58,325 nt of DNA from a virus (IMGVR_UViG_3300032334_000450:1-58325), one strand, 5' to 3'; positions 304 to 57,140 are shown, counted from the first letter of the stretch. The notes: generated by a model from the sequence alone, not told the origin. Program-made: numbers and translations.

Positions 304-538
304 TTTGTTTCTCCGGCATTGGACAATCAGGTGGTACAGGAACCGCACACCATATAGCTCTCCATTTAAGCCTAGGTGCGGGTTCCCATCGGTCTATGTA
401 CGTGTCAGGCATGTTCTTCAGCAAGTGACGTACATTTCTTTTCTCGCGACTAACTGCGGTGCAAATGTCTTCAAGTGTCATACCATCTTCATTAGCCCGC
501 AGTAAGGCGCGAATCTCATGCGTCGCGTTTGTTCTCAT
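287..538 (-). CDS. small putative (winged) HTH DNA-binding protein
   Basis: GMTLEDICTAVSREKRNVRHLL resembles a helix-turn-helix; tightly packed in minus-strand operon. Confidence 0.55.
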   Translation of the reverse strand: MRTNATHEIRALLRANEDGMTLEDICTAVSREKRNVRHLLKNMPDTYIDRWEPAPRLKWRAIWCAVPVPPDCPMPEKQNDPHR

Positions 539-758
539 CGATGAACTCGTTAAGTTTGTTCATGTAATGCAGTGCTTTGTTAGCATCATCTGAACCATCT
601 TTTCTACCTTGTCGCATAGCATACTTAATGATGTTGCCTTTGAGAAACCCGAGAAACTCTTCGGGCGTCATCAAGGATTCCATTACAGTCCACGGCTGTA
701 CGGGCATGTCTTTGTAGTGCGATCCACCGACCTGCACGTCATCTGCTTTAGTACTCAT
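516..758 (-). CDS. DUF3310 family protein (T7 gp1.7-like nucleotide kinase domain)
   Basis: QVGGSHY...GFLKGNIIKYAMR.G.K...D..KA.HY family signature. Confidence 0.85.
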   Translation of the reverse strand: MSTKADDVQVGGSHYKDMPVQPWTVMESLMTPEEFLGFLKGNIIKYAMRQGRKDGSDDANKALHYMNKLNEFIDENKRDA

Positions 759-955
759 TTTTTCGCCTTCCTTTGTCTAAGGTTTCTACCAGTTACTCTG
801 TCAGTCCAACACGATGCACATATCCATCTGGTCTGACTCATTTGCACCCCGCCTTCTGGCGGCCGCATTTCTTCGCACTTGTTGCATAAGCGCAGTTGGT
901 GAGCCGGTTGTTTGCTACCTATGTCCAAGTGGTTGTTTACAAAATTACTCTTCAT
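755..955 (-). CDS. small zinc-ribbon protein
   Basis: CNKC...WICASC; ATGA overlap with upstream gene supports start at 955. Confidence 0.7.
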   Translation of the reverse strand: MKSNFVNNHLDIGSKQPAHQLRLCNKCEEMRPPEGGVQMSQTRWICASCWTDRVTGRNLRQRKAKK

Positions 956-1194
956 TGTTCCTCGTCCCATATGTCTTCTGTCCAAACAAGAATTGGCGTC
1001 GATGGGCCTAGGTACCCACCTTCGATGTTGAACTCAATAAACTCACGTGCTTCTTCGTGCGTCATTCCATCACGCTCTACGAGTATGTCTCGTATCTTTT
1101 CTGCGTTGTAAATAAGCACACTCACCAAGCGACGATTTCGGTGTATGTATGCGGGGCCAATGATGGCCTCGTCGTAGCCGTCGTATTTAATCAT
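952..1194 (-). CDS. conserved phage hypothetical protein (DGYDEAIIG...EFNIEGGYLGPSTP type)
   Basis: ORF track; motif typical of environmental phage proteins; operon packing. Confidence 0.75.
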   Translation of the reverse strand: MIKYDGYDEAIIGPAYIHRNRRLVSVLIYNAEKIRDILVERDGMTHEEAREFIEFNIEGGYLGPSTPILVWTEDIWDEEQ

Positions 1195-1378
1195 GCAATG
1201 CTTTCTCTTTTAGTTCCTCAATTGGTGTCCATCCATATCGACGCCATACAGATTGCACATCTGCACCAGAAGTCCATATAAAACGTGGGTCGTTAACTGG
1301 TATTTTGGGAAAGCACACCGAGCGAACGGGAATGCCTTGGTGAACAATTGGTTCTTGGTTCATGATAGTAAGCCTCAC
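1187..1378 (-). CDS. hypothetical protein
   Basis: overlapping start/stop with both neighbours. Confidence 0.65.
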   Translation of the reverse strand: MRLTIMNQEPIVHQGIPVRSVCFPKIPVNDPRFIWTSGADVQSVWRRYGWTPIEELKEKALHD

Positions 1379-1662
1379 ACGATTGGTTTGAAACAGATTG
1401 ACCCAACGACCTCGCCACGATTGACGATGTCATAAAACTTGCCGACGCTTTTTGCCCCCATGCGTGCCATGTCGCTAAGTACCACAGTCATCGATCGTCC
1501 AAGTGTTGAAACGTACACGACAAGGTTCTCTTCATCAACGGACAACCACTCACGGTCTTGGTCGATGTTGACACCTAGTTCTTCAAAACCTCGCACGAGT
1601 TTTGTCTCGATGCGAGTCAGTCGATACTGAATATCTTTTTCTTTTGTGTTAGGTGCGTTCAT
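1375..1662 (-). CDS. hypothetical protein
   Basis: ORF track; operon packing. Confidence 0.7.
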   Translation of the reverse strand: MNAPNTKEKDIQYRLTRIETKLVRGFEELGVNIDQDREWLSVDEENLVVYVSTLGRSMTVVLSDMARMGAKSVGKFYDIVNRGEVVGSICFKPIV

Positions 1663-1669
1663 ATTGTTC

Positions 1670-2812
1670 TCACAGTGCTACAGTAACCCGAGTGCCGAAG
1701 GGCTCTCGTGGATGGGACAGGCCGATATCAGCCCAGATAACAGGGTACTCAGGTTCCTCGCATTCATCCAAGTCACCCTCCATGTCGGTAAAGAAAATCA
1801 TGCCGCAGTAACGCTCACCGGTCTTGCCGAAGTGCTCGAACACTGGTTGAAAGCGCGTGCCGCCACCGCCCTTGGGCTGTAGCTTAAGCATGTCGTCACG
1901 TTCGAAACGTTCTACATGTGTAACCGAAGAGTCGCAGTAAACAACCTCAACGAATGATGGCTGCAAGTCGTCAACGATTGCCTGAATCTCAGCGGCGATC
2001 TGGTTGCATTCCTTGGGGCCCATCGAGCCTGATGTGTCAAAGCCAATGGCTAGGCCACCGAGTGAGTCAGTGCGAAGCGACGGCATATACAAACCAGAAC
2101 CGATGAAGCGACGCGAAGGACGTAGGTACGTATAGTCCGCGGCCGATGATTCTGTCAGCATGGAACGAGTCACGTCTTGCCAACGCACATTGGGTTTGCC
2201 TACGCTGTCGAGTACGCGATCGATCATGCTAGAACCTTGGCCGCATTCTTTGGCCATCTTGGCGGCGGCAACAATGGTAGCTTCCATGTCAACACGTGTA
2301 GCCTCGTCTTGTGCATCCTCAAGATCACCCTTGCCGTCAAAGCCACCGGCATTGGGCGTACCCTCGCTGTCGCCATCACCTGAGCCAGAACCATTAGATG
2401 GAGGCGGAGGATTTTCTTTGAGCTTGGCGTAGACTTCCTCGGAGGACATATGCTCACGCACCCAACGCAAGTCGACACCACCCTTGGGCAACTGCCAACC
2501 ACGACTACGTATGTACGCATTGATAAGCGCATCATTGGCATAGTTCCACAAGCTAGGATCACGACTCTCACGTCTCCACATGTGCATCATCACGACGTGG
2601 CATGCCTCATGCAACACAAGGCCAAACAATTCCTCGTCGGTCAGCGGATCACAGAACGCAGGGTTAAAGCGTACCCACGTACCATTGGTGCCGGCAGTCG
2701 ATACCTTGTCAGATATCTCACGCTTGACACGTGTCATGACAGCGGCAATGAATGATTCGCGAAGGCCGAGCTTGCTGTAAGCCACATCAATTCGATCAGA
2801 TAAGTTGCTCAT
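1670..2812 (-). CDS. DUF2201-like metallopeptidase + vWA domain protein
   Basis: LHEACH (HExxH), DTSGSM (MIDAS DxSxS), GGGGTRF, FFTD motifs. Confidence 0.88.
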   Translation of the reverse strand: MSNLSDRIDVAYSKLGLRESFIAAVMTRVKREISDKVSTAGTNGTWVRFNPAFCDPLTDEELFGLVLHEACHVVMMHMWRRESRDPSLWNYANDALINAYIRSRGWQLPKGGVDLRWVREHMSSEEVYAKLKENPPPPSNGSGSGDGDSEGTPNAGGFDGKGDLEDAQDEATRVDMEATIVAAAKMAKECGQGSSMIDRVLDSVGKPNVRWQDVTRSMLTESSAADYTYLRPSRRFIGSGLYMPSLRTDSLGGLAIGFDTSGSMGPKECNQIAAEIQAIVDDLQPSFVEVVYCDSSVTHVERFERDDMLKLQPKGGGGTRFQPVFEHFGKTGERYCGMIFFTDMEGDLDECEEPEYPVIWADIGLSHPREPFGTRVTVAL

Positions 2813-2836
2813 AATTTCTCCAGTAAGTAAACAAGT

Positions 2837-2852
2837 TAATCCCGTGGGATTA
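2837..2852. repeat. palindromic repeat copy 1 (TAATCCCGTGGGATTA)
   Basis: read directly; 2 nt after stop of 2855..3133. Confidence 0.95.
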
Positions 2853-2854
2853 GG

Positions 2855-3133
2855 TCAATTATATTCCAATGCAAACAAAGATTCAACAAAGACACGCGCA
2901 GTCTGCAAGTCATCGAAGGACTTTACATCATCGAACGTGTTGCGCGTCACAACCCACCCACGATCCGAGTCGAGTAACCCAGACTTGTTGTAGGCGGGAC
3001 GGACATACGCAAACACGTGCTTGACGATAGACTGCTTACGATTCTTGTATAAGCTGTGTTTCTCTACGTAGGCAGTCCAAGAACCAACTGGTGTGTTCTG
3101 CCAACGTAACTCTGGTCGTTTGTCAGTAACCAT
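2855..3133 (-). CDS. hypothetical protein
   Basis: ORF track; start overlaps AAA gene stop. Confidence 0.7.
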   Translation of the reverse strand: MVTDKRPELRWQNTPVGSWTAYVEKHSLYKNRKQSIVKHVFAYVRPAYNKSGLLDSDRGWVVTRNTFDDVKSFDDLQTARVFVESLFALEYN

Positions 3134-4140
3134 TATTTCATCGCGAACGCGGCCTGATTAGCGATAGCCCACTGGGTAAACGCTGAACTCTTAGTGATCG
3201 TGCGGTCACGCTTGTGTGCCAGTTTAATGGTGAGTGTCTGCACATCGCCGGGCATCTTGGACAGGAACTTCCATGCCTTGTCGAAGTTGGTAGCGTCGAG
3301 ACGTGTAGCCAAGCCCATCGCCACGCAGTAACGCACGTTGAGTTCTTTGGGCACGGGCACGTCCTTACCCTGCAAGATGTCCTCGATACGTGGCATTGAT
3401 TCCCATACACGCAAGTGTGTCTCGAAGATCATGGCCGCTTCCTCACCGACGTCACCCTTGATAAGTTCGACGCGATCCTGCACAGGCAAGTCAAGCTCCA
3501 GTGTGTGCGACACAGCGAACCACGAACGTGGTGAAGGGAAAGGACGAATGTCACCAGTGGGCTCGAACTTGTGCAACAAGTCAGGGCGATCTTGTAACAG
3601 AGACAGAATCTCTGGGCGAATGCCGCGTGTGATTGCATGGGCAACGAAGTCGTCGATCGTGGTGTTGACGTCAATGTCACACATGCGGTTCTGCAGTGGT
3701 GCGGCAAGGTTAAACGTAACGCCTCGGTCAGTCTTACGATTGCCGGCGGCAATGACCATCCACTCAGCGGGAATGCCGAAGTCCTCGGGTGTTAAGCATA
3801 GTTGATATGCCGCGGCTTGCACTGATGGCGGTGCTGATGTGATCTCGTCAAGGAACAAGATACCGGCACCAGACTCTGGCAAGAAACTAGGGCGTGCCCA
3901 GTTGGTGCGGCCTTCGACAACGTGGGGAATACCACGCAAGTCAGTGGGCTCCATCTGCGCTAAGCGCAAGTCAATGACACCCTGCCAGTTGGCAACGTGC
4001 TCAGATAAAAGTTTGCTAGTCTGAAACACAACCTCAGACTTTCCGATACCCGATGGGCCACGCAAGAATGTTGTACGTGCTCGTGTGTTGTCGTTGAGAT
4101 AACGCTTAACGAGAATGGGTGTAACGTGTGCAATACGCAT
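3133..4140 (-). CDS. MoxR-like AAA+ ATPase
   Basis: Walker A GPSGIGKS, Walker B ILFLDE, AAGN sensor, arginine finger LQNR, PSPRSW motif. Confidence 0.9.
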   Translation of the reverse strand: MRIAHVTPILVKRYLNDNTRARTTFLRGPSGIGKSEVVFQTSKLLSEHVANWQGVIDLRLAQMEPTDLRGIPHVVEGRTNWARPSFLPESGAGILFLDEITSAPPSVQAAAYQLCLTPEDFGIPAEWMVIAAGNRKTDRGVTFNLAAPLQNRMCDIDVNTTIDDFVAHAITRGIRPEILSLLQDRPDLLHKFEPTGDIRPFPSPRSWFAVSHTLELDLPVQDRVELIKGDVGEEAAMIFETHLRVWESMPRIEDILQGKDVPVPKELNVRYCVAMGLATRLDATNFDKAWKFLSKMPGDVQTLTIKLAHKRDRTITKSSAFTQWAIANQAAFAMK

Positions 4141-4200
4141 GATAATTTCCTTTAGTAAACAAGTTTGAGAAAGTGCCGATGAACCGCATCGGCTACGGGT

Positions 4201-4216
4201 TAATCCCGTGGGATTA
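4201..4216. repeat. palindromic repeat copy 2
   Basis: TAATCCCGTGGGATTA; contains TAA stop of 4214..4426. Confidence 0.95.
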
Positions 4217-4426
4217 GTTTAGGGGAGTAACAGGCATGCCGTCAACAACATCGGTTGGAGCTGCTTCTGCTTTGGCACGATGCTCAGCTTCCTGAGCTTG
4301 CGCTTGTTGCAAGATGTTGTCAATCATTCCACGCATGAGGCCATGAGGGCCGGCGTCGAGAGTGCGTAACAAAACCTGCAACGCGTTAACGTCGAGATTC
4401 AAATCGAGTTTGATGGAATAGTTCAT
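4214..4426 (-). CDS. hypothetical protein
   Basis: AAGGA RBS; stop inside repeat. Confidence 0.75.
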   Translation of the reverse strand: MNYSIKLDLNLDVNALQVLLRTLDAGPHGLMRGMIDNILQQAQAQEAEHRAKAEAAPTDVVDGMPVTPLN

Positions 4427-4473
4427 AAGTTTCCTTTGGTTAATAAGTGTCTGCTGTTAGGCAGGCGTACAGT

Positions 4474-4713
4474 TTAATTGGATTCTGAGTTGAGTGCAAG
4501 TTTAGCATGGTCAACTGTTGTAAATGCTTTCATTGTTGGGCGGTCGGTTACTTCCTCCACGTGTTTATATGATTGCAATGTGTAGTCGTACGCGATCGGC
4601 TCTGCATTACACAGTAACTTGAACAACGCAAACGCGTCGTCAGCATTGAGCAACACAGTGTTGTACTTGTAAGGTATGTCGATCACGGCCATGGATTTCT
4701 TGTTGTCAACCAT
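4474..4713 (-). CDS. hypothetical protein (MVDNKKSMAV...)
   Basis: 3' part of ORF 4474..4986; ATG at 4713 immediately after upstream stop with GGAG RBS. Confidence 0.7.
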   Translation of the reverse strand: MVDNKKSMAVIDIPYKYNTVLLNADDAFALFKLLCNAEPIAYDYTLQSYKHVEEVTDRPTMKAFTTVDHAKLALNSESN

Positions 4714-4714
4714 G

Positions 4715-5596
4715 TCAGAACTCCAACATTTCATCAATGGACGCAAGTAGCGCAGTGGTCTGTATGTTAACTGCCTTACGCTTTTCTGGATCATCGCGAA
4801 GTTGTTGCGGATGTGGTGTGGTATCGATAACTGTTTTTGCAAGCGCAAGGATGTTGTCGGGGAGAATCTCAGCGAAGTCATGAAGCAAGTTAATTTCTTC
4901 TGCAATGTTCTCGCACACTGAGTCACGGAAGATCGGTGCACGTATCTCAGACACGCCAGTTTTCTTGTTAAGTATCTCACGTTCACCCTTTCCAGTTACC
5001 TCATGTAAGCGAGCGACCACTTCTTTGAGACGCTCCAGTGGAGCGCGAAGCACGGCGTTCATTGACTCTTTAGTTGCCTCTTCTACTTGTTGCCTGAGTG
5101 TGTTGATCTCATCCTCTTGCAACGATACGCGGAAGTCACCCATGTCTGTGATGGGGCGGTAGTTAATGCGGAACCTGAACGCATTGCGTAAGTCCTGCAA
5201 GTCTGGGTATGCACTGGGATCGAACAACCCGCCTTGACTAGCTTGTGCATGCATCATGACGTTGCTCCAGTTGTTGAGGAACGCGGTTACAGATTGGTCA
5301 AACTCAAGCTCGAACTTACCCATACGTTCTGCAAACTGCATAAAGCGTACAGACGGGAGCATGTCCTCACCCCTACCCCATGGGTATGTGGTGCTGTTGA
5401 TGTATGCACGGGCTTGCGACTCGACCATGTTGATCGGTTGGATGAGTGACTTGGGATACAAGTCTTTGCGGTACTGCCCTGCACCATGTGCGTTGTTGGC
5501 AAGTTCTGCATCAGATGTTGCTTTGTGATCCTTCTGAGTCATCTGTGGTTTATTGACTGACAGGGACACAAGCAATGCGTGGTCTTTGATTGACAT
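4715..5596 (-). CDS. DUF3150-like protein
   Basis: helical 293-aa protein with YPW...LP and YP....LR..F motifs, next to AAA/vWA pair. Confidence 0.6.
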   Translation of the reverse strand: MSIKDHALLVSLSVNKPQMTQKDHKATSDAELANNAHGAGQYRKDLYPKSLIQPINMVESQARAYINSTTYPWGRGEDMLPSVRFMQFAERMGKFELEFDQSVTAFLNNWSNVMMHAQASQGGLFDPSAYPDLQDLRNAFRFRINYRPITDMGDFRVSLQEDEINTLRQQVEEATKESMNAVLRAPLERLKEVVARLHEVTGKGEREILNKKTGVSEIRAPIFRDSVCENIAEEINLLHDFAEILPDNILALAKTVIDTTPHPQQLRDDPEKRKAVNIQTTALLASIDEMLEF

Positions 5597-5617
5597 AAGT
5601 TTCTCCAGTTAAAGGGT

Positions 5618-5633
5618 TAATCCCGTGGGATTA
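5618..5633. repeat. palindromic repeat copy 3
   Basis: TAATCCCGTGGGATTA; contains stop of 5631..6002. Confidence 0.95.
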
Positions 5634-6002
5634 GAGGGCGTCACGAATGACGGTGCGGACAGCTTCTTCGAAGTCACCGCCTGAGAAGTTAACTTCGAAG
5701 TTCTCGAGTTTCTGGTCGACAACATCGTCGATCTTGGACTCGAAGTCGAAGTCGTTCATAGCATCCTCAGTCTTCTGACTGATCTGGTCGTCGATGTAGG
5801 ACACTGACGCATCGCATACTGCCTCACGTGTCTGGTCGTCGTTGTTGAGTAAGTCAATGACTGACAAGCGCAAGGTCTCGGGATCGAGCGCAAGCACGGC
5901 CTGAGTCTCAGCTTTCATCTTGCTGAGGACTGCGTCTGCAACGTCCGACACCAGTTTGTCGTACACGCCGCCGAAAATAGATAACAGTTGTGATTGATCC
6001 AT
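5631..6002 (-). CDS. acidic hypothetical protein
   Basis: GGAG RBS before ATG at 6002; D/E-rich C-terminal half. Confidence 0.75.
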   Translation of the reverse strand: MDQSQLLSIFGGVYDKLVSDVADAVLSKMKAETQAVLALDPETLRLSVIDLLNNDDQTREAVCDASVSYIDDQISQKTEDAMNDFDFESKIDDVVDQKLENFEVNFSGGDFEEAVRTVIRDAL

Positions 6003-6026
6003 GATGATCTCCATTAGTAAACAAGT

Positions 6027-6042
6027 TAATCCCACGGGATTA
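6027..6042. repeat. palindromic repeat copy 4 (TAATCCCACGGGATTA)
   Basis: read directly; lies in leader downstream of promoter. Confidence 0.95.
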
Positions 6043-6086
6043 GGAAAGGACAAGGGGTGTGGGCGATCCCCTAGTCCATGGTCATT

Positions 6087-6115
6087 ATTGTAACAGGTTG
6101 TGGTGTGGTTGTCAA
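6087..6115 (-). promoter_or_regulatory. sigma70-type early promoter
   Basis: TTGACA-17 bp-TACAAT on minus strand. Confidence 0.85.
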
Positions 6116-6116
6116 G

Positions 6117-6710
6117 TCAGAAGGCTAACTCCATCTGTGCGGGATGCGACAACCTGCGTCTATCCCATTCCAGTTCCTTGACTGCCTCGTCGAGTACCGC
6201 GAGCTTGTCCTCCGCCATGTCTTCGTCCAAGGCAAGGCCGCTCTCGTATCCGCCTACGTGAGACTGGATGTCGAAGTCAAGCTCGCCGTCAATGATGGCA
6301 GTCAGCTCGAGAAAAACCCAGTGCCACTCGTCGTCGTACCAACCTTTGAGATACTTGTAGTCTGCGTCGACGGCCTTCATGCAGTCCTCGGGTGTCACGT
6401 GTCCCCATTCCTTGCGGGCTACCTCAAGCGACGCCATGACGTCGTAGTACAGATCACGCACCCCACGTGAATTTTTATACAGTGGGCGTAGCATCCGCAA
6501 GCGCGTCTCTTCCTCAAGCTCGGGTTCTTCGTCGAGCAAATGCTGCTCCATCTGGTACTCGCTGAGCGGGTTCCAACCCATCTCGACCACAACCCCGTGG
6601 CAGTCTGACCACTCGAGTGGGGACGTTGCGTCATGATCCTGTATCCAACGCACGCGGTATTGCCTACCGTTCTTGTGCACGAATATTTCTTGGTGTGTGA
6701 TGTCACTCAT
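6117..6710 (-). CDS. acidic hypothetical protein
   Basis: 197 aa; AGGAG RBS. Confidence 0.8.
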   Translation of the reverse strand: MSDITHQEIFVHKNGRQYRVRWIQDHDATSPLEWSDCHGVVVEMGWNPLSEYQMEQHLLDEEPELEEETRLRMLRPLYKNSRGVRDLYYDVMASLEVARKEWGHVTPEDCMKAVDADYKYLKGWYDDEWHWVFLELTAIIDGELDFDIQSHVGGYESGLALDEDMAEDKLAVLDEAVKELEWDRRRLSHPAQMELAF

Positions 6711-6719
6711 GATTGCTCC

Positions 6720-7115
6720 TTAAATAAAATTTGATCTACGGGTTAGCTCGATGTAGTTGTCTACATAAACACCCTCGTTGTTGTATGCATCGGTCTGCGT
6801 ATCGATGTCGTCGTCTTCCTCACCCAAGCGCATGAACACAAACGCACCCTCATAGGTTTTACTTACAAGTTGCATGAGTTTGATCTGCATGTCAACCCAT
6901 GGCGTTGACTCGTACCACTTGACATCGTTGTAATGCACGCGAATCTGGTACGGATACTCATCGCTGTTGTCGATGTGGTAATCCCAGTCGTTGTTGATGA
7001 TGTCAAGCCCAGAGTTAACATCAGAGGCAATCAGCATTGCTTCCAACTTAAAGGCTTGGCGGTTCTCCTCTGTATTAAATAACATGACGTACTTTACGTC
7101 TGATCTGTAACCCAT
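6720..7115 (-). CDS. conserved phage protein (MGYRSDV...F.RLGEEDDD type)
   Basis: recognisable N- and C-terminal motifs; RBS. Confidence 0.8.
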   Translation of the reverse strand: MGYRSDVKYVMLFNTEENRQAFKLEAMLIASDVNSGLDIINNDWDYHIDNSDEYPYQIRVHYNDVKWYESTPWVDMQIKLMQLVSKTYEGAFVFMRLGEEDDDIDTQTDAYNNEGVYVDNYIELTRRSNFI

Positions 7116-7129
7116 AATAGTTCCTTCCT

Positions 7130-7145
7130 TAATTCCGTGGGATTA
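7130..7145. repeat. palindromic repeat copy 5 (variant TAATTCCGTGGGATTA)
   Basis: one mismatch; contains stop of 7143..7427. Confidence 0.9.
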
Positions 7146-7427
7146 GTTACACATTGCAAAAAACAAAGCGACACGTTGTGTCGTGCCATAGTGGCCGGTT
7201 ATTTCGTCGTACTCGAACTCCTCACGAGAGTGGTCAATCACAACCATGTGGGAATACACCCACAAGTTGTCGTCAGAATCCCGCCAGTCGTCAGTGCTTG
7301 CACTGAACCATTCATCGATGAGGGTTTGCTCCTCGTCGTCAAGTCCTGACGGATCGGCATTGATTAGGTACGGCAAGGCGAACTCACCGATCACACATTC
7401 AATAGTTTCAAATACAGTAAAAGTCAT
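7143..7427 (-). CDS. acidic hypothetical protein (ALPYLINADPSGLDDEE)
   Basis: ORF track; ATGA overlap. Confidence 0.75.
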   Translation of the reverse strand: MTFTVFETIECVIGEFALPYLINADPSGLDDEEQTLIDEWFSASTDDWRDSDDNLWVYSHMVVIDHSREEFEYDEITGHYGTTQRVALFFAMCN

Positions 7428-7621
7428 AGCACATCCTTTTGAATTAGTTCAATGTTGTCAATCTTCACAGGGCTCAACTCGTCGAAGTCTTCGTCGATGT
7501 TGGCGTTATTTAAAAAGTTATTAGCCGCATGGATGAGCGCATCCTCGGTGCTGTCTGCAATTACCTTGGTGCGGTAAAACACCTCGCGTCGTGAATAAAC
7601 AACGTATTCATTAGCCATCAT
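7424..7621 (-). CDS. hypothetical protein
   Basis: ORF track; overlaps neighbours. Confidence 0.65.
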   Translation of the reverse strand: MMANEYVVYSRREVFYRTKVIADSTEDALIHAANNFLNNANIDEDFDELSPVKIDNIELIQKDVL

Positions 7622-7704
7622 GGTCTCCAGTAAAACAAGTCAAGTAGTAAAACAATTGCACCGATCAGGAACACAACGCGTTCCAGTTTTTCCCATTTAG
7701 TCAT
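7618..7704 (-). CDS. 28-aa membrane peptide MTKWEKLERVVFLIGAIVLLLDLFYWRP
   Basis: translated by hand; fills gap with overlaps; single hydrophobic helix. Confidence 0.65.
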   Translation of the reverse strand: MTKWEKLERVVFLIGAIVLLLDLFYWRP

Positions 7705-7825
7705 CATTGGATTCTCCTTCGTCGTCAACGACGACACGAATAATACGAACACCCTCAAAAATCTCGACGATCTCATAGTCGATGTCGCATGCGTCAAGCA
7801 ACGCGTGTAGTTCTTCCGCGGTCAT
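7697..7825 (-). CDS. 42-aa acidic protein MTAEELHALLDACDIDYEIVEIFEGVRIIRVVVDDEGESNDD
   Basis: translated by hand; AAGGA RBS right after repeat copy 6. Confidence 0.7.
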   Translation of the reverse strand: MTAEELHALLDACDIDYEIVEIFEGVRIIRVVVDDEGESNDD

Positions 7826-7836
7826 GATGTTTCCTT

Positions 7837-7852
7837 TAATCCCGTGGGATTA
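7837..7852. repeat. palindromic repeat copy 6
   Basis: TAATCCCGTGGGATTA; contains stop of 7850..8623. Confidence 0.95.
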
Positions 7853-8623
7853 GTTGTTGGTGTGAAGGGCTACGAATCCGGCCACAGTGGCACGCATTTG
7901 CTTGATGGGGTACTCAGATACAACATAGATAAAGTCAAGCACGTTGTTGCATGCCGTCATGAACTCAGGGTTATCGAAGTGTGACGCAACGGCTGACTGT
8001 GGGTGAATATCTTGCGACACGTTGCGAATGCATGTGTGAAGCTCTACCTTGGCCGCATCTAAATAGGAAAGCCTCGTTCCATCATGCAACCGCGGGCGCG
8101 TTGCGGCTATGGTCAAATACTCCATGGCTTTGTCGTAGTTCTGGCCGTACTGGCATGCCTCTGCACGATGGGGTTTTGTCAGTGATTGCGTTTTGAGGTC
8201 AAGGGCGTTGGCATTCCACTTGTAGCGTGTGCGGTAATTCTGCTCGAAACAACCCGTGCGATAAATGCGGGAGGTTATTTCTTCTGTGGTTTTACCTAGT
8301 TTCTGCATCTCTAAATGAAATGCTTGGAGGTATAGTGACTTGTGCCGTTTGGTCGTGGGTGAAAACCCGTTGACGTGCATCCATAGCTCAACGTTGCCCG
8401 TGTGGCCGTTGTGCACTAACTGTGCAACTTCTGTGCTGTATGAATAGCCAACGGCCAAAACATCGAAGTGCCCGAATGACTCAAGGTTGATTGCTTTTTG
8501 TTGTGAAAGCGTCGGGTTGCGTGCAGACATATTGGTGCCTACACCCAGTGAGCGCATTTCAGTGCCGCCGAGTTTTTTAGCCGCAGACGCAAAGCGTGCG
8601 GCAACTTGTGCATTAGTTGTCAT
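7850..8623 (-). CDS. hypothetical early protein
   Basis: 257 aa; GGAG RBS; YSYSTEVA...FSPTTKRH motif. Confidence 0.8.
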   Translation of the reverse strand: MTTNAQVAARFASAAKKLGGTEMRSLGVGTNMSARNPTLSQQKAINLESFGHFDVLAVGYSYSTEVAQLVHNGHTGNVELWMHVNGFSPTTKRHKSLYLQAFHLEMQKLGKTTEEITSRIYRTGCFEQNYRTRYKWNANALDLKTQSLTKPHRAEACQYGQNYDKAMEYLTIAATRPRLHDGTRLSYLDAAKVELHTCIRNVSQDIHPQSAVASHFDNPEFMTACNNVLDFIYVVSEYPIKQMRATVAGFVALHTNN

Positions 8624-8658
8624 GTTATCTCCAGTGATACGTTAATAAGTGAGGGAGT

Positions 8659-8674
8659 TAATCCCGTGGGATTA
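8659..8674. repeat. palindromic repeat copy 7
   Basis: TAATCCCGTGGGATTA in leader downstream of promoter. Confidence 0.95.
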
Positions 8675-8729
8675 GCACGGGTGTTTTGTCTTGCCGGTTT
8701 GCGTGGCCGCTCTCCGACTAAACATCCAC

Positions 8730-8758
8730 ATTGTAACACGTTGTGGTGCAGATGTCAA
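8730..8758 (-). promoter_or_regulatory. sigma70-type early promoter
   Basis: TTGACA-17 bp-TACAAT; 25/29 identical to promoter at 6087..6115. Confidence 0.85.
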
Positions 8759-8759
8759 A

Positions 8760-9340
8760 TCAAGGGCTGTATAAATTAGTCCCATAAAAGATGTGGTGTG
8801 GTTGTTGTAAAAGTGGTCGTGTGTAAATTAGTCCCATACCACAACATATGAGAATGATTAAAAATATGGAAAATTCTGTAGGATGTTTGGCGTTTTTGGA
8901 AAATAGTTTGCAAATTAGTTAGATTTAGTCAGAAATAGTCGGCAATTAGTTTGGAAAAACGTCGCAAGTCCTTGATTTTAAAGACTTTAGTCAATTAGTC
9001 AGCTTTTCAGCCGAGAGAGAGAGACGTCAGGAGGAGTTGGGGGGTATCGGCGGGCAGAACTAATCTAAAACAAAAAACTTTTCAACTTTCCTCTCTTGTT
9101 TACCAATCTATTATCTATTTAACTAATCTTATAAATATATATACCTACTATGCAATGTCCAATGCAAAAAAGTCCTTTAAAATCAACAACTTAGCTCATC
9201 TGGGCAACATGTGTACAATTTAACGTCAAAATAGTTTAGATTTTGTAAGTTTCGTGTAATCTAAAAAAGCGACCACTTACGTCGCAACCCGCATGAATGC
9301 TTGATTCTTGCCAATCTAAAAATTTCCATGCACATCCAGA
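8760..9340. other. AT-rich non-coding region, candidate replication origin
   Basis: no ORF in track; oppositely oriented ATTAG/CTAAT short repeats; two IHF-consensus matches. Confidence 0.55.
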
Positions 9341-9341
9341 C

Positions 9342-9357
9342 TAATCCCGCGGGATTA
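9342..9357. repeat. palindromic repeat copy 8 (TAATCCCGCGGGATTA, flanks inverted)
   Basis: flanked C...A instead of T...G. Confidence 0.95.
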
Positions 9358-9506
9358 AACGCCCGAAATTCGTCGCTCATACGTCATACGTCGCATAACC
9401 TTACCGCGTACAGCGTACGTCGTTGCATACTGGGCCGCGCGTGATAGTAGTTGGTGCAGGGCGCATGCATGATAGTAGTTAGGTATTGGGGCAAAAATTT
9501 TTGACG

Positions 9507-9529
9507 AAAAAAAGCCCCCGAAGGGGCTT
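9507..9529 (-). terminator. intrinsic terminator after 9545..10192
   Basis: AAGCCCC-TTCG-GGGGCTT followed by T-run on minus strand. Confidence 0.85.
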
Positions 9530-9544
9530 GGCCGGTAAACCGGT

Positions 9545-10192
9545 TTAGATTGACGCGGCACCTTTTACAGTTTTGCCTTTGGCCGCCTTATTGACGCTAT
9601 AACCAAGGGTTATTAAATGCGCCACAATGCGTGGGTGAAAAACCGCGTCTTTGAAATAAATTTCAAAATCATCTAACCAAGCCGAAAATTTATCGGTTTC
9701 GGTTTTGACCATATCGGGCGCGGCCGCGGCCGCGGGTGTTGCGGCTTTGGGTGTTGATTTCCGGCCGCCGCCGGTTTTTCGGCCAATCCCGTGCGTTTCG
9801 CGAACTTGCTTGGCCGCGTCTTTCATTGCATGCTTGGGCATGTTAACGGCTTCGGCCGCTGTAGTTGGTGTGTCCACTTTTTTGCCGTCTTTGCCAATGG
9901 TGTTCACCATGACGGGACATTGTGCGGCCGCATGCAAAGTTAACGCGTCAACAAATAGTGATTTCACGTTATGGCCGGCCGCGGTGAAATCGGCCGCATA
10001 CAATGCCACAACTGCCCCGATTCTTTCCCCAATGGGTTTCGCGGGATCAAGTTGCGCGGCGGCCGCGGCGGCGGCTTCTTTGCATTTGGCCAACATGCTT
10101 TGGGCGGCTTGGCCGGCTTCATTAATCAACGTGCCGATGGCCGCGTCGCGTGTTGCCACTGTAGCAGTGGCGGCTTTGATTGCTTTGCTCAT
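9545..10192 (-). CDS. Ala/Lys-rich early protein of unknown function (monocistronic)
   Basis: 215 aa; AGGA RBS; own promoter candidate and terminator. Confidence 0.85.
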   Translation of the reverse strand: MSKAIKAATATVATRDAAIGTLINEAGQAAQSMLAKCKEAAAAAAAQLDPAKPIGERIGAVVALYAADFTAAGHNVKSLFVDALTLHAAAQCPVMVNTIGKDGKKVDTPTTAAEAVNMPKHAMKDAAKQVRETHGIGRKTGGGRKSTPKAATPAAAAAPDMVKTETDKFSAWLDDFEIYFKDAVFHPRIVAHLITLGYSVNKAAKGKTVKGAASI

Positions 10193-10259
10193 GATGAGTG
10201 TCCTATTAAGTAAATGCCCTAGAAACCCCTAGGCGGGTATGCCTCGTTGGCATGGGTCA

Positions 10260-10289
10260 ATTATAACCGATATCTGGCCAACATGTCCA
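10260..10289 (-). promoter_or_regulatory. putative sigma70 promoter for 9545..10192
   Basis: TGGACA-18 bp-TATAAT on minus strand. Confidence 0.6.
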
Positions 10290-10300
10290 CCACATAGCAT

Positions 10301-10316
10301 TAATCCCACGGGATTA
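10301..10316. repeat. palindromic repeat copy 9
   Basis: TAATCCCACGGGATTA, 11 bp upstream of putative -35. Confidence 0.95.
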
Positions 10317-10455
10317 GGCCGGTCGCGGGTGATAGTAGTTAAGGCTCCTGCGTCGTTCGTCACGCGCCGTGCGTCGCATACTGGAATGTCAGTGGATACT
10401 AACTTAGCCATGTTGTCAAGCCCAACGCGTGATAGTAGTGATGATAGTTTGAACG

Positions 10456-10480
10456 AAAAAAAGCCCACTTTCGTGGGCTT
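10456..10480 (-). terminator. intrinsic terminator
   Basis: AAGCCCAC-GAAA-GTGGGCTT plus T-run on minus strand. Confidence 0.85.
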
Positions 10481-10484
10481 GGCT

Positions 10485-10580
10485 TCAGAAGAAGAGGACA
10501 TCAAAGTAATGCAGGGCTAGCGCAGTGAGCGCGAGGCCCACTGCAACCGCGCTCAGGATATCAAGAGCATTGGATTTCAT
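10485..10580 (-). CDS. 31-aa membrane peptide MKSNALDILSAVAVGLALTALALHYFDVLFF
   Basis: translated by hand; GAGG RBS; ends just before terminator. Confidence 0.65.
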   Translation of the reverse strand: MKSNALDILSAVAVGLALTALALHYFDVLFF

Positions 10581-11076
10581 AAACTGCGACCTCTTCGAAT
10601 TTGGTGCCGGTCTGCACTTTTTTGCAGGACTCAGAACCGTCCGCGATATTGGCTTCGACTCGCAACATCACGTCAACCGAACCGATTGTGGCTTGGAAAC
10701 GATAAACACGTGATGCACAATATTCCAGAGCGTAATCATGAGAGCCGATGGCTTCGAAGCCATAAGTGCCGATGGCTTCAAGCAAAGCTGGCACTGCACC
10801 ATCACGCAGAGAATCGACAGTGTCTTCAATTGAAATTTGCAATTCGTTTTTGTAGTTGCCTGTCCATGAAAGCCATGTTGAAGGGCGAGCATAAAAATGC
10901 TTAGAAAAACCGATGTCCTTTGCATTTTCAATTATCGCGTTGACCACCGCATAAGCTGGCACGAATGCCTGCGCTTGGGACTCGAGCTCTTTCAGCTCAT
11001 TACGCTTTTCGACCAATGCCTCACGCTTTTCTTTAATAGCGCGTGCGAATGAAACGGGTTTTGCAATTCTAGCCAT
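10561..11076 (-). CDS. hypothetical early protein
   Basis: 171 aa; AAGGA RBS; TATAAT at 11139..11144 upstream. Confidence 0.8.
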   Translation of the reverse strand: MARIAKPVSFARAIKEKREALVEKRNELKELESQAQAFVPAYAVVNAIIENAKDIGFSKHFYARPSTWLSWTGNYKNELQISIEDTVDSLRDGAVPALLEAIGTYGFEAIGSHDYALEYCASRVYRFQATIGSVDVMLRVEANIADGSESCKKVQTGTKFEEVAVYEIQCS

Positions 11077-11379
11077 GATTAAAATTCCTTTAAGTAAGTG
11101 AGTTGAATTTTGTTTGGCCTCTTTCGTCCATGTAGGGAATTATACGCGGATTAGGGATTATGTATAGGTCTGTACTGTAATTCTGGCCACCTGCGCGTGA
11201 TAGTAGGCCACCCCCCACAGGACACCCACCCCGCCCCCCCGGCCCCCTAGGCTGTATCCGTCACTCTCATAACAAGGTCAATTTTTTAGATTCCTTTATC
11301 TACCCAACATCTCCACCACTTAATTTTTATACCCCCAAGCCCCTCTTGACAATCCCAAAATTTTTTGGCAAATTTTTAG

Positions 11380-11409
11380 TGGACACTGTTTAAATAACCA
11401 TGTTATATT
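11380..11409 (+). promoter_or_regulatory. putative promoter for terminase operon
   Basis: TGGACA-18 bp-TATATT with TG extension; ATG 6 nt downstream. Confidence 0.5.
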
Positions 11410-11415
11410 GCACGC

Positions 11416-11961
11416 ATGAACAATTCAATCAATGCCGATCAGGTGTTGCGCGAACTTGCACTTGCCATAGCTAGGAATAAAGTGGGGGCCATGCGCCCGA
11501 TCGCTGACGTTCTTGCAGGTGAAGGTGTAACGCAATCAGAGTACGATGCTATATCCGAAAACCCTCAGTTTATTCGGTATGTAGAGAGCTATGCTAAAGA
11601 AATGCAGGACAGTGGCTTCTCGTTTGCTGCTAAATCCCGCATTCTTGCAGAAGACTTACTCCCTACTGCGTACCATATGGTTAAAGACCCGGACACTCCA
11701 GCAGCTGTAAGGGCAAAAATCATCGAAAATTTCGTAGATTGGGGCGATCTAAAGCCTAAAAACAGTGCTATTTCAACTGCTGGCCCGGGTTTTTCGATCA
11801 CAATTAACCTTCCAAGTACTGCAAATTCGAGCCCAAAAACCATCGTTTTAGAGGCTGAGACACCCGAAAAAACCCCGAAAATTGCAGAAAATGTGCAAAA
11901 ACCGGCTTTAGTTTTGCTTGAAGACGAAAATTACGAATATGCAGGGGACGACTATTTATGA
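11416..11961 (+). CDS. terS: terminase small subunit
   Basis: directly upstream of and overlapping terL; helical N-terminus, FSITINL tail. Confidence 0.7.
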   Translation: MNNSINADQVLRELALAIARNKVGAMRPIADVLAGEGVTQSEYDAISENPQFIRYVESYAKEMQDSGFSFAAKSRILAEDLLPTAYHMVKDPDTPAAVRAKIIENFVDWGDLKPKNSAISTAGPGFSITINLPSTANSSPKTIVLEAETPEKTPKIAENVQKPALVLLEDENYEYAGDDYL

Positions 11962-55304: not shown

Positions 55305-57140
55305 CTATTTCGCCGCACCGTACGAAGGGCCCACACCCGTCTCACAAGATACGGGAATATTCCGGCACCACTTGGGTGTCAAAGATAGGCACTCTTCCAT
55401 ATAAGCGCGTGCTTGAGTAAGTTCTTCATTAGGCACCACGCAGACTGCTTCGTCATGAACTGACAGCTTGACAGGGTACCGCTCGTTAATACGAGCAGTT
55501 TGCCACATAACGATCCGCATTGCAGCATGTTGTGATAAATTTTCTACAACTTTAGGCCCAAAAATACGAACTCGTTGTTTTCCCATCAAGTAAGACCACT
55601 CTTTGCCGTCGTACTTCAGGTCGTGGTACACAACGCCGGGCTCGCCGGGGCGGCCGAAGCCATCCTTCTGCGTGATAAACCATCCATTTACATCCACGTT
55701 GATAAGGCTACAACCATTGGCAATATCCGGCAGAATTAATTGCTGACATCTAGCCCACAAATCTACTACTTTAGAATGCACAGAGCGGTATAGGTTAACA
55801 ATATCGTATGCACGATTAAGATCAATTGGCTGAACACTCGGATCGCTACGAGCCGCAATACGCACCATCTCTTGGAAGCGAGCGGCACCCGCACCATACT
55901 GCAAACCGAGCATGGCGGTCTTGCCTAAGAATCGTTCGGCCTTGTCAGCCTTGGTGATGTCACGACCAAACAACTTAGACGCAAAGTCACAGTACAGATC
56001 GACACCATTAGCTAACTTCTCTAGCACTTCGTCTTGGCCGGCCAAAGCCATCACAGTGCGTAGCTCAATGTTCGATGAGTCACCGACAAGCACAGTGTGT
56101 CCGGCAGGAGCAAGCAAGGCATTACGCAAACCCGCAGACGGGCCTCTGGCAGGGATATTCTGCCAATTAATGCTGTTGCCGCCTGAGTACCGGCCAGTGG
56201 TCTTAGCGCCCCAGAAGTTGAGATACACCGGCAGTGGGCCACGCTTTGCAGTATCCACGAACTTTAGCGCACGGGTTTCTGCGATGGTTGTTTTCACACC
56301 AAGGCGAGCGGCAACAAGAGTTTGCACAACGGGGTTTTCATGGTCGAGCAAGTCAGTGAATTCTTTATCGCTTTTGGCAAACGCATACGTCTCACGCTCA
56401 GTCGTCTTGCTGATCTTCTTTGGTGGTGCTACGCCATTCAACTCTAACTGCTCAGCGAACTTGTCATTGGACATCAGCACATCACGCCCCACAACAAGCG
56501 AACGCATCAATGCTTCTTTACGAGCTACCTCGTCGTTATACAACTGCTCCATCATCGCCACGTCACCCACAAGCATGGGTTCGGTAAACATACGCACAGT
56601 CATGTCGATAAGACGGGCTTCCAGTGGCGGCGTGAATGCATCCATCTTGGTACCAATCGCACGGCACAGCCATGTATCATGCTTGCAGTAATCTGCGTAC
56701 GCCTCTAATTCCATGGGATTAAAGTCTTCACGGCGTTTGCCCAACGCTTTAACAACCTCAGTACCCTTATCAGGGAACCCAAAGAATTTAGCTAAGTTAG
56801 CAAGTGAGTGTGAGACTAGGTAGGGGTAAATCATTCGGCCTTGGGAAAGCGTATCCATCCAAAGCTTTGGGCGTATCCCTAGCCGCTGAGACAGCGCGTA
56901 GCCGTCGAACAAAGTGTTGTGACACCGCACAGCGGAATTACCCCAGTCGTAGTTCGTATGCATCCACTCAAGGATTTCCGCCTCAGTGCCGCTGAACCAA
57001 ACAGGTGGCTCTTCGTTGCGTGCTACGCATACGCCAATAAACTCAAACCTATCGTCTGTGATGTACGCATCGGTCTGCATCTTTGACAAACTGAATTGTG
57101 CATCGTAGTACGTCTCAATATCTACAGTAAGTATGTCCAT
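55305..57140 (-). CDS. polA: family A DNA polymerase with 3'-5' exonuclease
   Basis: DIETY, HNTLFD, YC.HD exo motifs; TGRYS, DSSNIELR (A), KTAMLGLQYG (B), VHDE (C). Confidence 0.95.
   Translation of the reverse strand: MDILTVDIETYYDAQFSLSKMQTDAYITDDRFEFIGVCVARNEEPPVWFSGTEAEILEWMHTNYDWGNSAVRCHNTLFDGYALSQRLGIRPKLWMDTLSQGRMIYPYLVSHSLANLAKFFGFPDKGTEVVKALGKRREDFNPMELEAYADYCKHDTWLCRAIGTKMDAFTPPLEARLIDMTVRMFTEPMLVGDVAMMEQLYNDEVARKEALMRSLVVGRDVLMSNDKFAEQLELNGVAPPKKISKTTERETYAFAKSDKEFTDLLDHENPVVQTLVAARLGVKTTIAETRALKFVDTAKRGPLPVYLNFWGAKTTGRYSGGNSINWQNIPARGPSAGLRNALLAPAGHTVLVGDSSNIELRTVMALAGQDEVLEKLANGVDLYCDFASKLFGRDITKADKAERFLGKTAMLGLQYGAGAARFQEMVRIAARSDPSVQPIDLNRAYDIVNLYRSVHSKVVDLWARCQQLILPDIANGCSLINVDVNGWFITQKDGFGRPGEPGVVYHDLKYDGKEWSYLMGKQRVRIFGPKVVENLSQHAAMRIVMWQTARINERYPVKLSVHDEAVCVVPNEELTQARAYMEECLSLTPKWCRNIPVSCETGVGPSYGAAK

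Follow-up and report, generated by a model that had tools for sequence, protein, structure and literature searches.

A multi-copy 18-bp palindrome in the early region of an uncultured freshwater phage lineage: a candidate array of operator and roadblock sites

What is the role of an 18-bp palindrome that recurs, almost unchanged, throughout the early region of a phage? The question is raised by a viral DNA of 58,325 nucleotides (IMGVR_UViG_3300032334_000450; hereafter the window, meaning the whole stretch analysed), for which an earlier sequence-only reading had noticed nine such copies and listed four options: (a) roadblock operators, (b) junctions for shuffling accessory-gene cassettes, (c) an RNA hairpin, or (d) loading sites for a protein that protects or organises the DNA. 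A scan of the window with the 18-mer TTAATCCCRYGGGATTAG, tolerating up to two mismatches, recovered all nine places (2836, 4200, 5617, 6026, 7129, 7836, 8658, 9341 and 10300) and a tenth copy with one mismatch at 56705, while none of 100 dinucleotide-preserving shuffles contained any match. The early region thus has nine copies of Y-TAATCCC-RY-GGGATTA-R, with 0 expected by chance; the core pattern with at most one mismatch found 10 sites in the window, and a reversed control pattern found 0. The 7-2-7 symmetry described earlier is correct, as are the outer bases T...G on the plus strand in eight of the nine copies. Because all genes within positions 1-11100 lie on the minus strand, a point absent from the earlier reading, the sense reading is C-TAATCCC-AC-GGGATTA-A. 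The copies and the features associated with them are as follows:

2836..2853, minus strand: motif copy, exact; begins 5 nt downstream of a sigma70-like promoter's -10; a DUF2201 metallopeptidase/VWA gene starts 24 nt beyond the copy
2886-2858, minus strand: weaker promoter preceding copy 2836
4200..4217, minus strand: motif copy, exact; a 70-aa ORF (4214-4426) ends at its first TAA; upstream of an AAA_5 (MoxR-like) gene
5617..5634, minus strand: motif copy, exact; stop of ORF 5631-6002, 21 nt before a 293-aa gene
6026..6043, minus strand: motif copy, exact, with GT as sense centre; a near-consensus promoter has its -10 44 nt upstream
6087..6115, minus strand: near-consensus sigma70 promoter (TTGACA, 17 nt, TG-n-TACAAT), coupled to copy 6026
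7129..7146, minus strand: motif copy, one mismatch (on the sense strand, A for G in the 3' arm); stop of ORF 7143-7427
7836..7853, minus strand: motif copy, exact; stop of a 257-aa gene
8658..8675, minus strand: motif copy, exact; within the 5' leader of the 257-aa gene, 55 nt downstream of a near-consensus promoter's -10
8730..8758, minus strand: near-consensus sigma70 promoter (TTGACA, 17 nt, TG-n-TACAAT), coupled to copy 8658
9341..9358, minus strand: motif copy whose outer bases have the reverse polarity (only the minus strand matches exactly); non-coding, with the terminator of the 215-aa gene ~155 nt upstream
9545..10192, minus strand: gene of a 215-aa early protein of no known family; candidate binder
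10260..10289, minus strand: 215-aa gene promoter (TGGACA, 18 nt, TATAAT), closely following copy 10300
10300..10317, minus strand: motif copy, exact; precedes the -35 of the 215-aa gene's promoter by 10 nt
56705..56722, minus strand: degenerate copy, one mismatch, inside the DNA polymerase ORF; perfect in some relatives

The motif is built into the gene boundaries. As had been claimed, its first TAA in the sense orientation supplies the stop codon of the upstream gene at 4214, 5631, 7143 and 7850; a doubtful 68-codon frame is ended likewise at 9355, and among 204 oriented copies 95 provide the upstream stop. The copy said to lie 2 nt past a stop is the one with its core at 2837-2852, the TGA belonging to ORF 2855-3133. 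An SD-preceded start codon follows within 108 nt for eight of the nine copies (seven were found by script; the eighth, 7836, is followed by the 42-codon ORF 7697-7825, which is below the script's length cut-off). Copy 9341 lies in a non-coding stretch. Orthologues of the variant copy 7129 are perfect in two relatives.

A whole uncultured freshwater lineage of phages of ~58-61 kb is characterised by the motif. At least 119 IMG/VR stretches carry it, with 264 unique perfect copies, 40 copies with one mismatch and 5 with two, and 108 of the 119 have early or replication proteins in common with the window; beyond the 18 nt the flanks are not conserved across copies. All five near-complete relatives have 6-12 copies in one early region of 8-15 kb, with 0 for the reversed control. 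A scan of related phage contigs, suggested by the sequence-only reading, thus finds the repeat conserved, and the idea of a dedicated system agrees well with a motif kept almost letter for letter across a large lineage and clustered in its early region. In prokaryote genomes, by comparison, its frequency over 596 billion bases is roughly what chance would give (~555 chance sites expected), with a single site in 79 of the 80 matches listed, and therefore no host regulon is visible. These counts speak against a host protein (a nucleoid-associated or global regulator) as the binder. Such a protein, or a motif that organises the DNA for segregation, replication or control of injection rather than acting on transcription, would be compatible with the phage proteins, among which no recognisable DNA-binding domain or fold was found, and one copy adjoins a non-coding, AT-rich stretch that contains short iterated units and could be a replication origin. 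However, the copies track gene and promoter architecture and not one locus, so that we regard both variants as very unlikely; option (d), in particular, is unsupported.

The promoter side of this architecture is best seen with a strict definition, namely an extended -10 plus a -35 matching in at least five of six positions. Only three sites in the window conform to it, two of them on the early strand, and both of these near-consensus sigma70 promoters are followed by the motif, 55 nt and 44 nt after the -10, respectively. The motif follows 12 of the 13 promoters of this type in six genomes, at a distance of 35-55 nt. Conversely, a near-consensus promoter precedes only two of the nine copies, or three if the weaker promoter at 2886-2858 is included. 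Some copies precede promoters or follow strong terminators, and in one relative three copies stand in tandem ahead of a promoter. On the early strand, terminator-like sites are limited to 10480-10461, 9529-9512 and 9285-9269, plus the non-conserved 7188-7169.

Hairpin-capable elements downstream of early promoters or between cistrons are familiar from the nut/boxB sites of lambdoid phages and from the RNase III sites between the early genes of T7, and the arrangement of site, leader, genes and site is common to them and to the array described here; copies 8658 and 6026 occupy a nut/boxB-like position after an early promoter. Unlike nut/boxB, there are 9-12 copies rather than 2, and past 9269 there is no conserved terminator to override; no N-like protein was identified in the phage. 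Unlike either system, some copies of the motif lie upstream of promoters. RNase III sites need an extended double-stranded stem, for which 6-7 pairs are too short, and an RNase III processing site was rejected, as only that many pairs form and the flanks are not conserved.

A more general possibility is that the motif acts in mRNA as a hairpin (6-bp stem, 4-nt loop); the phage or host protein recognising it would repress translation of the downstream gene, cleave the transcript into monocistronic units or protect RNA ends. The copies do lie in a transcribed early region and have a common sense-strand polarity: relative to transcription, the 57 copies of six oriented early regions have C (42) or T (9) in the 5' flank, A (35) or G (17) in the 3' flank, and AC (28) or GT (14) in the centre. 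Most of them are situated 9-35 nt upstream of a start codon, adjoining the SD, two lie within the 5' leaders of the strongest promoters, and at 2836 the start site, as placed by prediction, coincides with the foot of the hairpin; the conserved Arg/Lys-Gly-rich stretch of the 215-aa protein would also agree with an mRNA role. The sense polarity and the short distance to the start codon, which would suit an RNA-level translational operator, are among the features that run against a DNA operator. However, the hairpin is weak (-5.8 kcal/mol, with only 6-7 pairs possible): in 58-nt contexts it appears in the minimum-energy fold of five of the nine copies and is absent from the other four, none of these contexts has a z-score below -1.5, and an Rfam search returned no family match. 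The distance to the start codon spans 9-119 nt, the variant base of copy 7129 puts a C-A mismatch into the stem of the sense RNA, and copies located upstream of promoters, after strong terminators or in tandem triplets are difficult to reconcile with a role in the transcript. More than 300 copies show no covariation in the stem, and at the outer and central positions symmetry, not pairing, is the rule: outer bases Y and R together with the centre RY are found in 343 of 344 copies, while pairable outer combinations (T..A plus C..G) number 59, whereas independence of the two ends would predict ~73.5. Option (c) is weakened by these results, although the sense-strand polarity speaks for it, and we consider it rather unlikely. 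The polarity itself is not required by a perfectly symmetric dimer site; it could reflect the stop-codon and leader context or shared descent.

As to a protein that might bind such a site, two had been proposed earlier. The product of 287-538 has homologues in only 4 of the 119 related stretches, whereas the 215-aa protein encoded at 9545-10192 is the best candidate. Its family is conserved, down to 37% identity, beside motif copies; its gene is bracketed by copies in almost every relative, and in two relatives copies are present inside a paralogue. A copy precedes the start codon by 93-142 nt in 26 of the 28 genes of the family and, where the promoter is readable, lies 5-18 nt upstream of the -35. 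The copies upstream of these promoters are imperfect in 14 of 26 cases, versus 45 of 309 for all copies (at most two mismatches). The protein is predicted to form a homodimer, with an ipSAE of 0.82 versus 0.00 for the best of three controls, a value reached by 20 of 30 proteins solved as same-chain pairs and by 1 of 23 whose structures are single chains; in the modelling runs at least 64% of the contacts were common and the pLDDT of the partner was at least 74. Searches of Pfam, NCBIfam, PHROG and PDB sequences gave no match to the protein and comparison with PDB folds no significant one, Pfam matched 0 of 23 family members, and no HTH_3 domain was found in six frames of the window. Homology to repressor c of phage phiC31 was rejected (hhalign of the 23-sequence family profile against gene c, probability 0.06%). 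A second conserved element, the CTACTATCA boxes, also flanks the 215-aa gene, so the protein might bind those boxes instead.

The copies also coincide with sites of gene gain and loss, as the alignment of relatives proposed by the sequence-only reading revealed. Within 10 nt of a motif centre fall 41 of 440 internal HSP ends, compared with 1.5% if they were evenly spread. Two extra ORFs of the window immediately precede copy 4200, at a place for which a relative has only 66 nt; relatives and other metagenome contigs diverge directly past copy 7836, the variable cassette starting 11-15 nt further on; and in two relatives copies lie on both sides of single unique ORFs. In this respect the motif resembles the PeSL cassettes of T4-type phages, described as an early promoter with a generic G/C-rich terminator stem-loop within or beside it (PMC2839356). 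Both are repeated intergenic elements of an ORFan-rich early region, arranged as upstream stop, sigma70 promoter, stem-loop, SD and start, and both are associated with variable ORFans and breakpoints of gene gain and loss; the present motif differs in having one fixed sequence, a weak stem, no T-tract, and a promoter linked to only 2-3 of nine copies. A motif that is mainly a recombination junction, its identical short repeats shuffling accessory-gene cassettes as has been proposed for the T4-type ones, and that has little regulatory role, nevertheless appears highly improbable to us. As stated earlier, no recombinase of the tyrosine or serine type is encoded (PF00589 and PF00239 had no match in six frames of the window, while control genomes were positive), and an integron attC-type system was rejected for lack of a dedicated one. 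Gene junctions devoid of the motif are also frequent breakpoints (e.g. 4715, 7424/7616 and 6116), and recombination alone leaves the near-perfect copies, the coupling to strong promoters and the syntenic copies at the 215-aa gene unexplained. Of option (b), the breakpoints adjoining the copies stand; the exchange of cassettes beside the motif is real but looks secondary.

We therefore favour option (a), with a probability of about 0.5: the copies would be DNA sites at which a dimeric regulator encoded by the phage acts as on operators and roadblocks. This reading fits best the half-site symmetry without pairing covariation, the fixed position ~45-55 nt after the strongest early promoters and the weakened copies at the promoter of a conserved, predicted dimeric early protein; copies in tandem or upstream of promoters agree with it too, the latter being unexplained by an element that works only in the transcript. 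Regulator binding, repression and the identity of the binder are what we infer. The operator would be double-stranded DNA with two abutting 9-bp half-sites (Y-TAATCCC-R), on which a symmetric dimer of an early protein, the 215-aa product being the best candidate, may sit. Host RNA polymerase would start at the few strong sigma70 early promoters; as the regulator accumulates, it would occupy the copies ~40-50 nt past the start sites and at the junctions of early cistrons, blocking or throttling elongation and insulating neighbouring units, and it may regulate its own synthesis through the weaker copies just upstream of its promoter. Being identical islands of 16-18 bp, the copies may double as crossover points or boundaries for swaps of accessory genes, apparently as a side effect.

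The closest parallel is the Streptomyces phage phiC31 (NC_001978), whose conserved inverted repeats are operators bound by repressor c. We counted 16 copies of its 18-bp palindrome, 15 of them intergenic, at distances of 9-93 nt (in one case 260 nt) from the preceding gene and of 10-396 nt from the following one; one copy is 59 nt upstream of the repressor gene and one is inside it. Both phages have many near-identical, perfect palindromes of 16-18 bp, mostly intergenic, and the copies upstream of and inside the phiC31 regulator gene may have a counterpart in those that bracket the 215-aa gene or, in some relatives, lie inside a paralogue. However, the site sequences differ, the copies of phiC31 are spread across early and late genes whereas the present motif belongs to the early region, phiC31 is temperate with an integrase whereas none is present here, and the comparison of the 215-aa family with repressor c, as described above, was negative. 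The stoperators of Cluster A mycobacteriophages (L5, Bxb1, TipsytheTRex) are asymmetric 13-mers whose inversion abolishes function; they occur in many intergenic copies, besides operators close to promoters, a monomer that combines an HTH with a second domain binds them, and they are proposed to stop elongating RNA polymerase (PMC9283540). The present array is likewise a multi-copy site in short intergenic spaces, oriented with transcription (here by the C...A flanks), but it is a 7-2-7 palindrome with polarity limited to the flanking and central bases, and neither HTH_3 nor lysogeny genes accompany it. That no lysogeny genes were found in the phage, in contrast to the known operator arrays of this kind, counts against the operator reading.

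The motif provides a simple sequence tag for the lineage and its early region in metagenomes, it suggests a specific, putative pairing of a regulator, the 215-aa protein, with the palindrome, and it offers a compact promoter-plus-operator module as a possible genetic part. To our knowledge, multi-copy phage operators acting inside operons have been known from only a few temperate actinophages, while a comparable array is here the signature of the early region in an abundant, uncultured lineage from freshwater in which no lysogeny genes were found and none of whose early proteins belongs to a known family. If the roadblock reading is true, stoperator-like control would extend beyond temperate mycobacteriophages to dimer-and-palindrome systems of lytic phages. 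It is also conceivable, though quite unlikely in our estimate, that a new type of early-gene control in a lytic phage is involved, in which a dimeric 215-aa regulator and sites heading every early unit would split the operon into separately throttled modules, while the same sites would serve as recombinase-free plug-in points for accessory genes; if so, one element would serve both regulation and modular evolution.

The 18-bp palindrome of the early region, a 7-2-7 repeat of the form Y-TAATCCC-RY-GGGATTA-R whose copies are named here by their start coordinates, is a real feature of the window and far above chance. The nine copies described in the sequence-only reading were all recovered, and a further near-copy lies outside the early region.

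Copies of the palindrome in the window
2836, 4200, 5617, 6026, 7129, 7836, 8658, 9341, 10300: palindrome copies from a scan for TTAATCCCRYGGGATTAG with at most two mismatches
56705-56722: near-copy with one mismatch, within the DNA polymerase gene, encoding DFNPMELE

No TTAATCCCRYGGGATTAG match arose in 100 dinucleotide-preserving shuffles, and the window, recorded as a complete virus of 58,325 bases with an estimated completeness of 96%, holds ten sites with at most one core mismatch and none of a reversed control pattern. All plausible genes from position 1 to about 11,100 are on the minus strand, so that in the sense direction the element reads C-TAATCCC-AC-GGGATTA-A. As had been noticed from the sequence, its first TAA is the stop codon of the upstream ORF at 4214, 5631, 7143 and 7850, and one more copy (core at 2837) follows a TGA by 2 bases; the proposed order of repeat, leader with ribosome-binding site and ORF also holds, a start codon preceded by a Shine-Dalgarno (SD) sequence being found within 108 nt after eight of the nine copies. 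The near-copy at 56705-56722 is perfect in some relatives through the amino acid changes E to G and M to T; in more distant ones the peptide is loosely kept and the DNA bears no likeness to the motif.

A motif scan of related phage contigs, also suggested in that reading, found the element to be conserved. The exact 16-base core is present in at least 119 IMG/VR stretches, many of them from contigs of 59-61 kb with 5-9 copies each; homologues of the early or replication proteins of the window are encoded in 108 of the 119 stretches listed; of the other eleven, eight contain one copy only. Five near-complete uncultured relatives carry 10, 11, 10, 6 and 12 copies, in one cluster of 8-15 kb each, and no match to the reversed control. 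Unique sequence contexts comprise 264 copies without a mismatch, 40 with one and five with two, and positions outside the 18 bases are not conserved. Prokaryotic genomes (596 billion bases) gave scattered matches, with a single site in 79 of the 80 listed and three sites in one contig; since by our own arithmetic about 555 sites are expected by chance, these matches are at about chance level, and no host regulon is visible among them. The three-copy contig (44,959 bases, copies within 8 kb), binned with a Candidatus Sericytochromatia metagenome-assembled genome, is probably a phage contig of this lineage put in that bin, which makes the bin a weak hint at the host or a binning error. Megablast of positions 1-12000 against the INPHARED phages gave no match; the nearest cultured phages, Pseudomonas phage Rollin and the Rhizobium RHph_TM27A group (terminase identity about 37%, primase-helicase 23-24%), have a genome plan in common with the window but lack the palindrome. 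About half of the sampled early-region words are present in a freshwater metagenome run from a second study. Among the papers searched, none has the motif as 14-mers, and nothing relevant emerged on palindromic repeats and early genes.

When the early regions of the window and the five relatives were oriented and gene-mapped, a common gene order emerged: the gene for a 215-aa protein, often one for a 257-aa protein, and those for a 197-aa protein, a 293-aa protein, an AAA_5 (MoxR-like) ATPase, a DUF2201 metallopeptidase/VWA protein and a 95-aa protein. The trio at 1670-2812, 3133-4140 and 4715-5596 (minus strand), which comprises the metallopeptidase/VWA protein, the ATPase and the 293-aa protein, occurs in all six genomes, and a Rhizobium phage annotation also includes an ATPase and a metallopeptidase gene. 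Many of these conserved genes have the element directly 5' (six of six genomes for the 293-aa gene, five of six for the ATPase), and the variable accessory ORFs are placed from the stop codon of a conserved gene to the next element. From 400 sites, 204 unique copies could be oriented by the downstream start codon after ambiguous ones, those near the end of a stretch and duplicates had been dropped; the next start codon lies 9 to 119 nt away, and in 95 of the 204 the element supplies the upstream stop codon. We regard such coupling as expected in a compact genome, because the element has stops in two of three frames on both strands. Three early genes of the window also have a leader in common, which is found again before early genes of relatives; its total in the window (7, with 4.9 expected) is not above chance.

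Shared leader of early genes
2827-2836, 4155-4164, 6017-6026, minus strand: ACTTGTTTAC, in the interval from palindrome (or hairpin) to SD sequence

A strict scan (extended -10 with at least 5/6 matches and -35 with at least 5/6) found only three promoters in the whole window, one serving the rightward genes at 11404 and two on the early strand, with -10 at 8735 and 6092 and the element 55 and 44 nt past it. Of the 13 strict promoters in the six early regions, 12 are followed by the element at a distance of 35-55 nt; a weaker promoter (2886-2858) ends 5 nt ahead of copy 2836. At the promoter of the 215-aa gene the element stands 5' of the -35, an arrangement kept in relatives down to 37% protein identity: a copy lies 93-142 nt ahead of the start codon in 26 of 28 family members, and a further one about 100-220 nt past the stop codon, after a strong terminator. 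Imperfect copies (at most two mismatches) make up 14 of the 26 upstream of genes of this family vs 45 of 309 overall, and their changes differ by lineage. Individual relatives have three tandem copies upstream of a promoter, or a copy directly abutting the Shine-Dalgarno sequence, and two relatives have copies inside the ORF of a paralogue, the frame differing from one relative to the other. The motif was ruled out as a substitute for a -35 or -10 box, there being no -10 that fits in the gap from motif to SD. A promoter for a phage RNA polymerase, or a hairpin promoter of the N4 type, was likewise rejected: the flanks of the motif are unconserved, the gap between it and the start codon is too short and varies too much, and the 2372-aa ORF is an ART-PolyVal polyvalent protein, not a polymerase. 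This ORF (38882-46000, plus strand) belongs to the virion module, has its ADP-ribosyltransferase domain near residue 1200 and is a candidate 'polyvalent' injected protein; giant ORFs of 2184 and about 2300 aa occur in the distantly related Rollin and RHph_TM27A.

We give roughly even odds (about 0.5) to the reading of the palindromes as an array of DNA operators and roadblocks for a phage-encoded dimer. Its main rival, that the palindrome acts at the level of mRNA, seems to us about half as likely. Recognition of the duplex is favoured by four findings. A pyrimidine and a purine occupy the outer positions and the centre is purine-pyrimidine, the pattern to expect of a dimer whose two halves each read Y-TAATCCC-R on their own strand; combinations of outer bases able to pair are not enriched (59 observed vs about 73.5 expected by our arithmetic); the RNA hairpin is weak (-5.8 kcal/mol), being part of the minimum-energy fold for five of the nine copies in 58-nt contexts, none of which folds with unusual stability; and copy 7129, the only variant in the window, has a C-A mismatch in the sense RNA. 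Copies upstream of promoters, in tandem or of graded quality are usual among operators and fit an mRNA element poorly. The RNA reading stays alive because the element is truly polar: the 57 copies of the six oriented regions have C (42) or T (9) at the 5' flank, A (35) or G (17) at the 3' flank and AC (28) or GT (14) at the centre. This polarity is weaker at copies in non-coding locations, i.e. those around the 215-aa gene, which suggests that stop-codon or leader context, or descent of a copy together with its leader, contributes to it. Rfam contains no family covering the motif. Spacings of neighbouring copies up to 320 nt (23 unique) are near whole helical turns for the five shortest (33, 63, 73, 106 and 106 nt) and not for the rest, and one of the five two-mismatch copies, a small number, is mirrored.

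As to the protein that would bind the operators, no recognisable DNA-binding domain was found among the early proteins, and models of HTH_3, tyrosine recombinase and serine recombinase had no match in the six frames. By its context the 215-aa protein (9545-10192, minus strand) is the best candidate: it comes first or second among the early products, copies of the element stand on both sides of its gene, and it is kept wherever the element occurs in stretches covering that region. It falls into at least 536 metagenomic clusters, all unnamed, and a segment of it rich in Gly, Arg and Lys holds an invariant stretch of basic residues (K120, R131, R138). Its structure is modelled with confidence (mean pLDDT 80) and has no significant neighbour in the PDB; the homodimer prediction reaches an ipSAE of 0.82 vs 0.00 for the best of three controls, a mark attained by 20 of 30 proteins solved as one-chain pairs and by 1 of the 23 single-chain ones. 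At least 64% of contacts are common to the runs and the partner pLDDT is at least 74; the modelling supports dimerisation of this protein as a prediction. Fold and family searches gave nothing significant for it or for the 293-aa protein, whose fold is confident and lacks an informative neighbour. The ESM Atlas pointed to the phiC31 repressor family with a score of only 0.79, and hhalign did not confirm this.

The 215-aa gene and the first early promoter are flanked by a second repeat, which could be the true target of the 215-aa protein instead of the palindrome.

Second repeat of the early region
9441-9451, 9469-9479, 10329-10339, 10429-10439, 11197-11207, minus strand: (A/C)CTACTATCA(C/T)

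It occurs five times in the window vs 0.69 expected, on the sense strand only, and CTACTATCA has 4-5 copies in each of the six related genomes, again sense-only and no more than about 1 kb from the 215-aa gene. The non-coding region 8760-9500, which separates the genes for the 215-aa and 257-aa proteins, presents in order a terminator, CTACTATCA boxes, a conserved segment resembling CCAGTATGCGACG, short iterated units of the type GACG(A/T)A(C/T)GA (greatly expanded in certain relatives), the palindrome, another terminator and about 500 nt with a GC content of 27-39%; this region may be a replication origin or a complex control region. A sub-threshold Rfam match to RybB at 10455-10515 (minus strand; 29.4 bits, gathering score 40) lies over the terminator that follows the first early gene and is probably a chance one, driven by the terminator hairpin.

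The palindromes had also been proposed as junctions for the shuffling of gene cassettes. By comparison with relatives, two ORFs are additional in the window; they stand between the 293-aa gene and copy 4200, and at that place one relative has 66 nt.

Small ORFs next to copy 4200
4474-4712, minus strand: ORF of 79 aa, in the window and some relatives, replaced by 66 nt in others
4214-4426, minus strand: ORF of 70 aa, with the same distribution

At this insertion only the element and the leader further downstream are held in common. Directly 3' of copy 7836 the DNA of the window, of a relative and of contigs from other metagenomes contains differing inserts, with loose ends at 7821-7825 and about 410 extra bases in one long contig. 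The part of the proposal that places breakpoints near copies stands, 41 of 440 internal ends of blastn alignments being within 10 nt of an element centre vs 1.5% under an even spread; the element as a dedicated junction is improbable, since breakpoints are common at element-free junctions too (4715, 6116 and a 7424/7616 deletion that is present in two runs) and a site-specific recombinase is lacking. In our reading, therefore, the exchange follows from the presence of identical short islands where units meet and is not the purpose of the element.

The closest analogue of the array is that of phiC31, the genome of which has 16 copies of an 18-bp palindrome, 15 intergenic; one copy precedes the repressor gene by 59 nt and one is inside it. 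These palindromes are known as the operators of the phiC31 repressor. Stoperators of Cluster A mycobacteriophages resemble the present copies as intergenic roadblocks oriented with transcription, but are asymmetric 13-mers bound by a monomer (PMC9283540). The PeSL cassettes of T4-type phages have a similar layout of promoter plus stem-loop and a tie to gene shuffling, but their stem-loops are generic terminators (PMC2839356). Unlike these three systems, the present array has a sequence of its own, is confined to the early region of phages without lysogeny genes, and has a candidate binder that belongs to no recognised fold or family. The palindrome is a putative control site of the early region throughout this lineage, with a likely secondary role as a boundary for the exchange of accessory genes.
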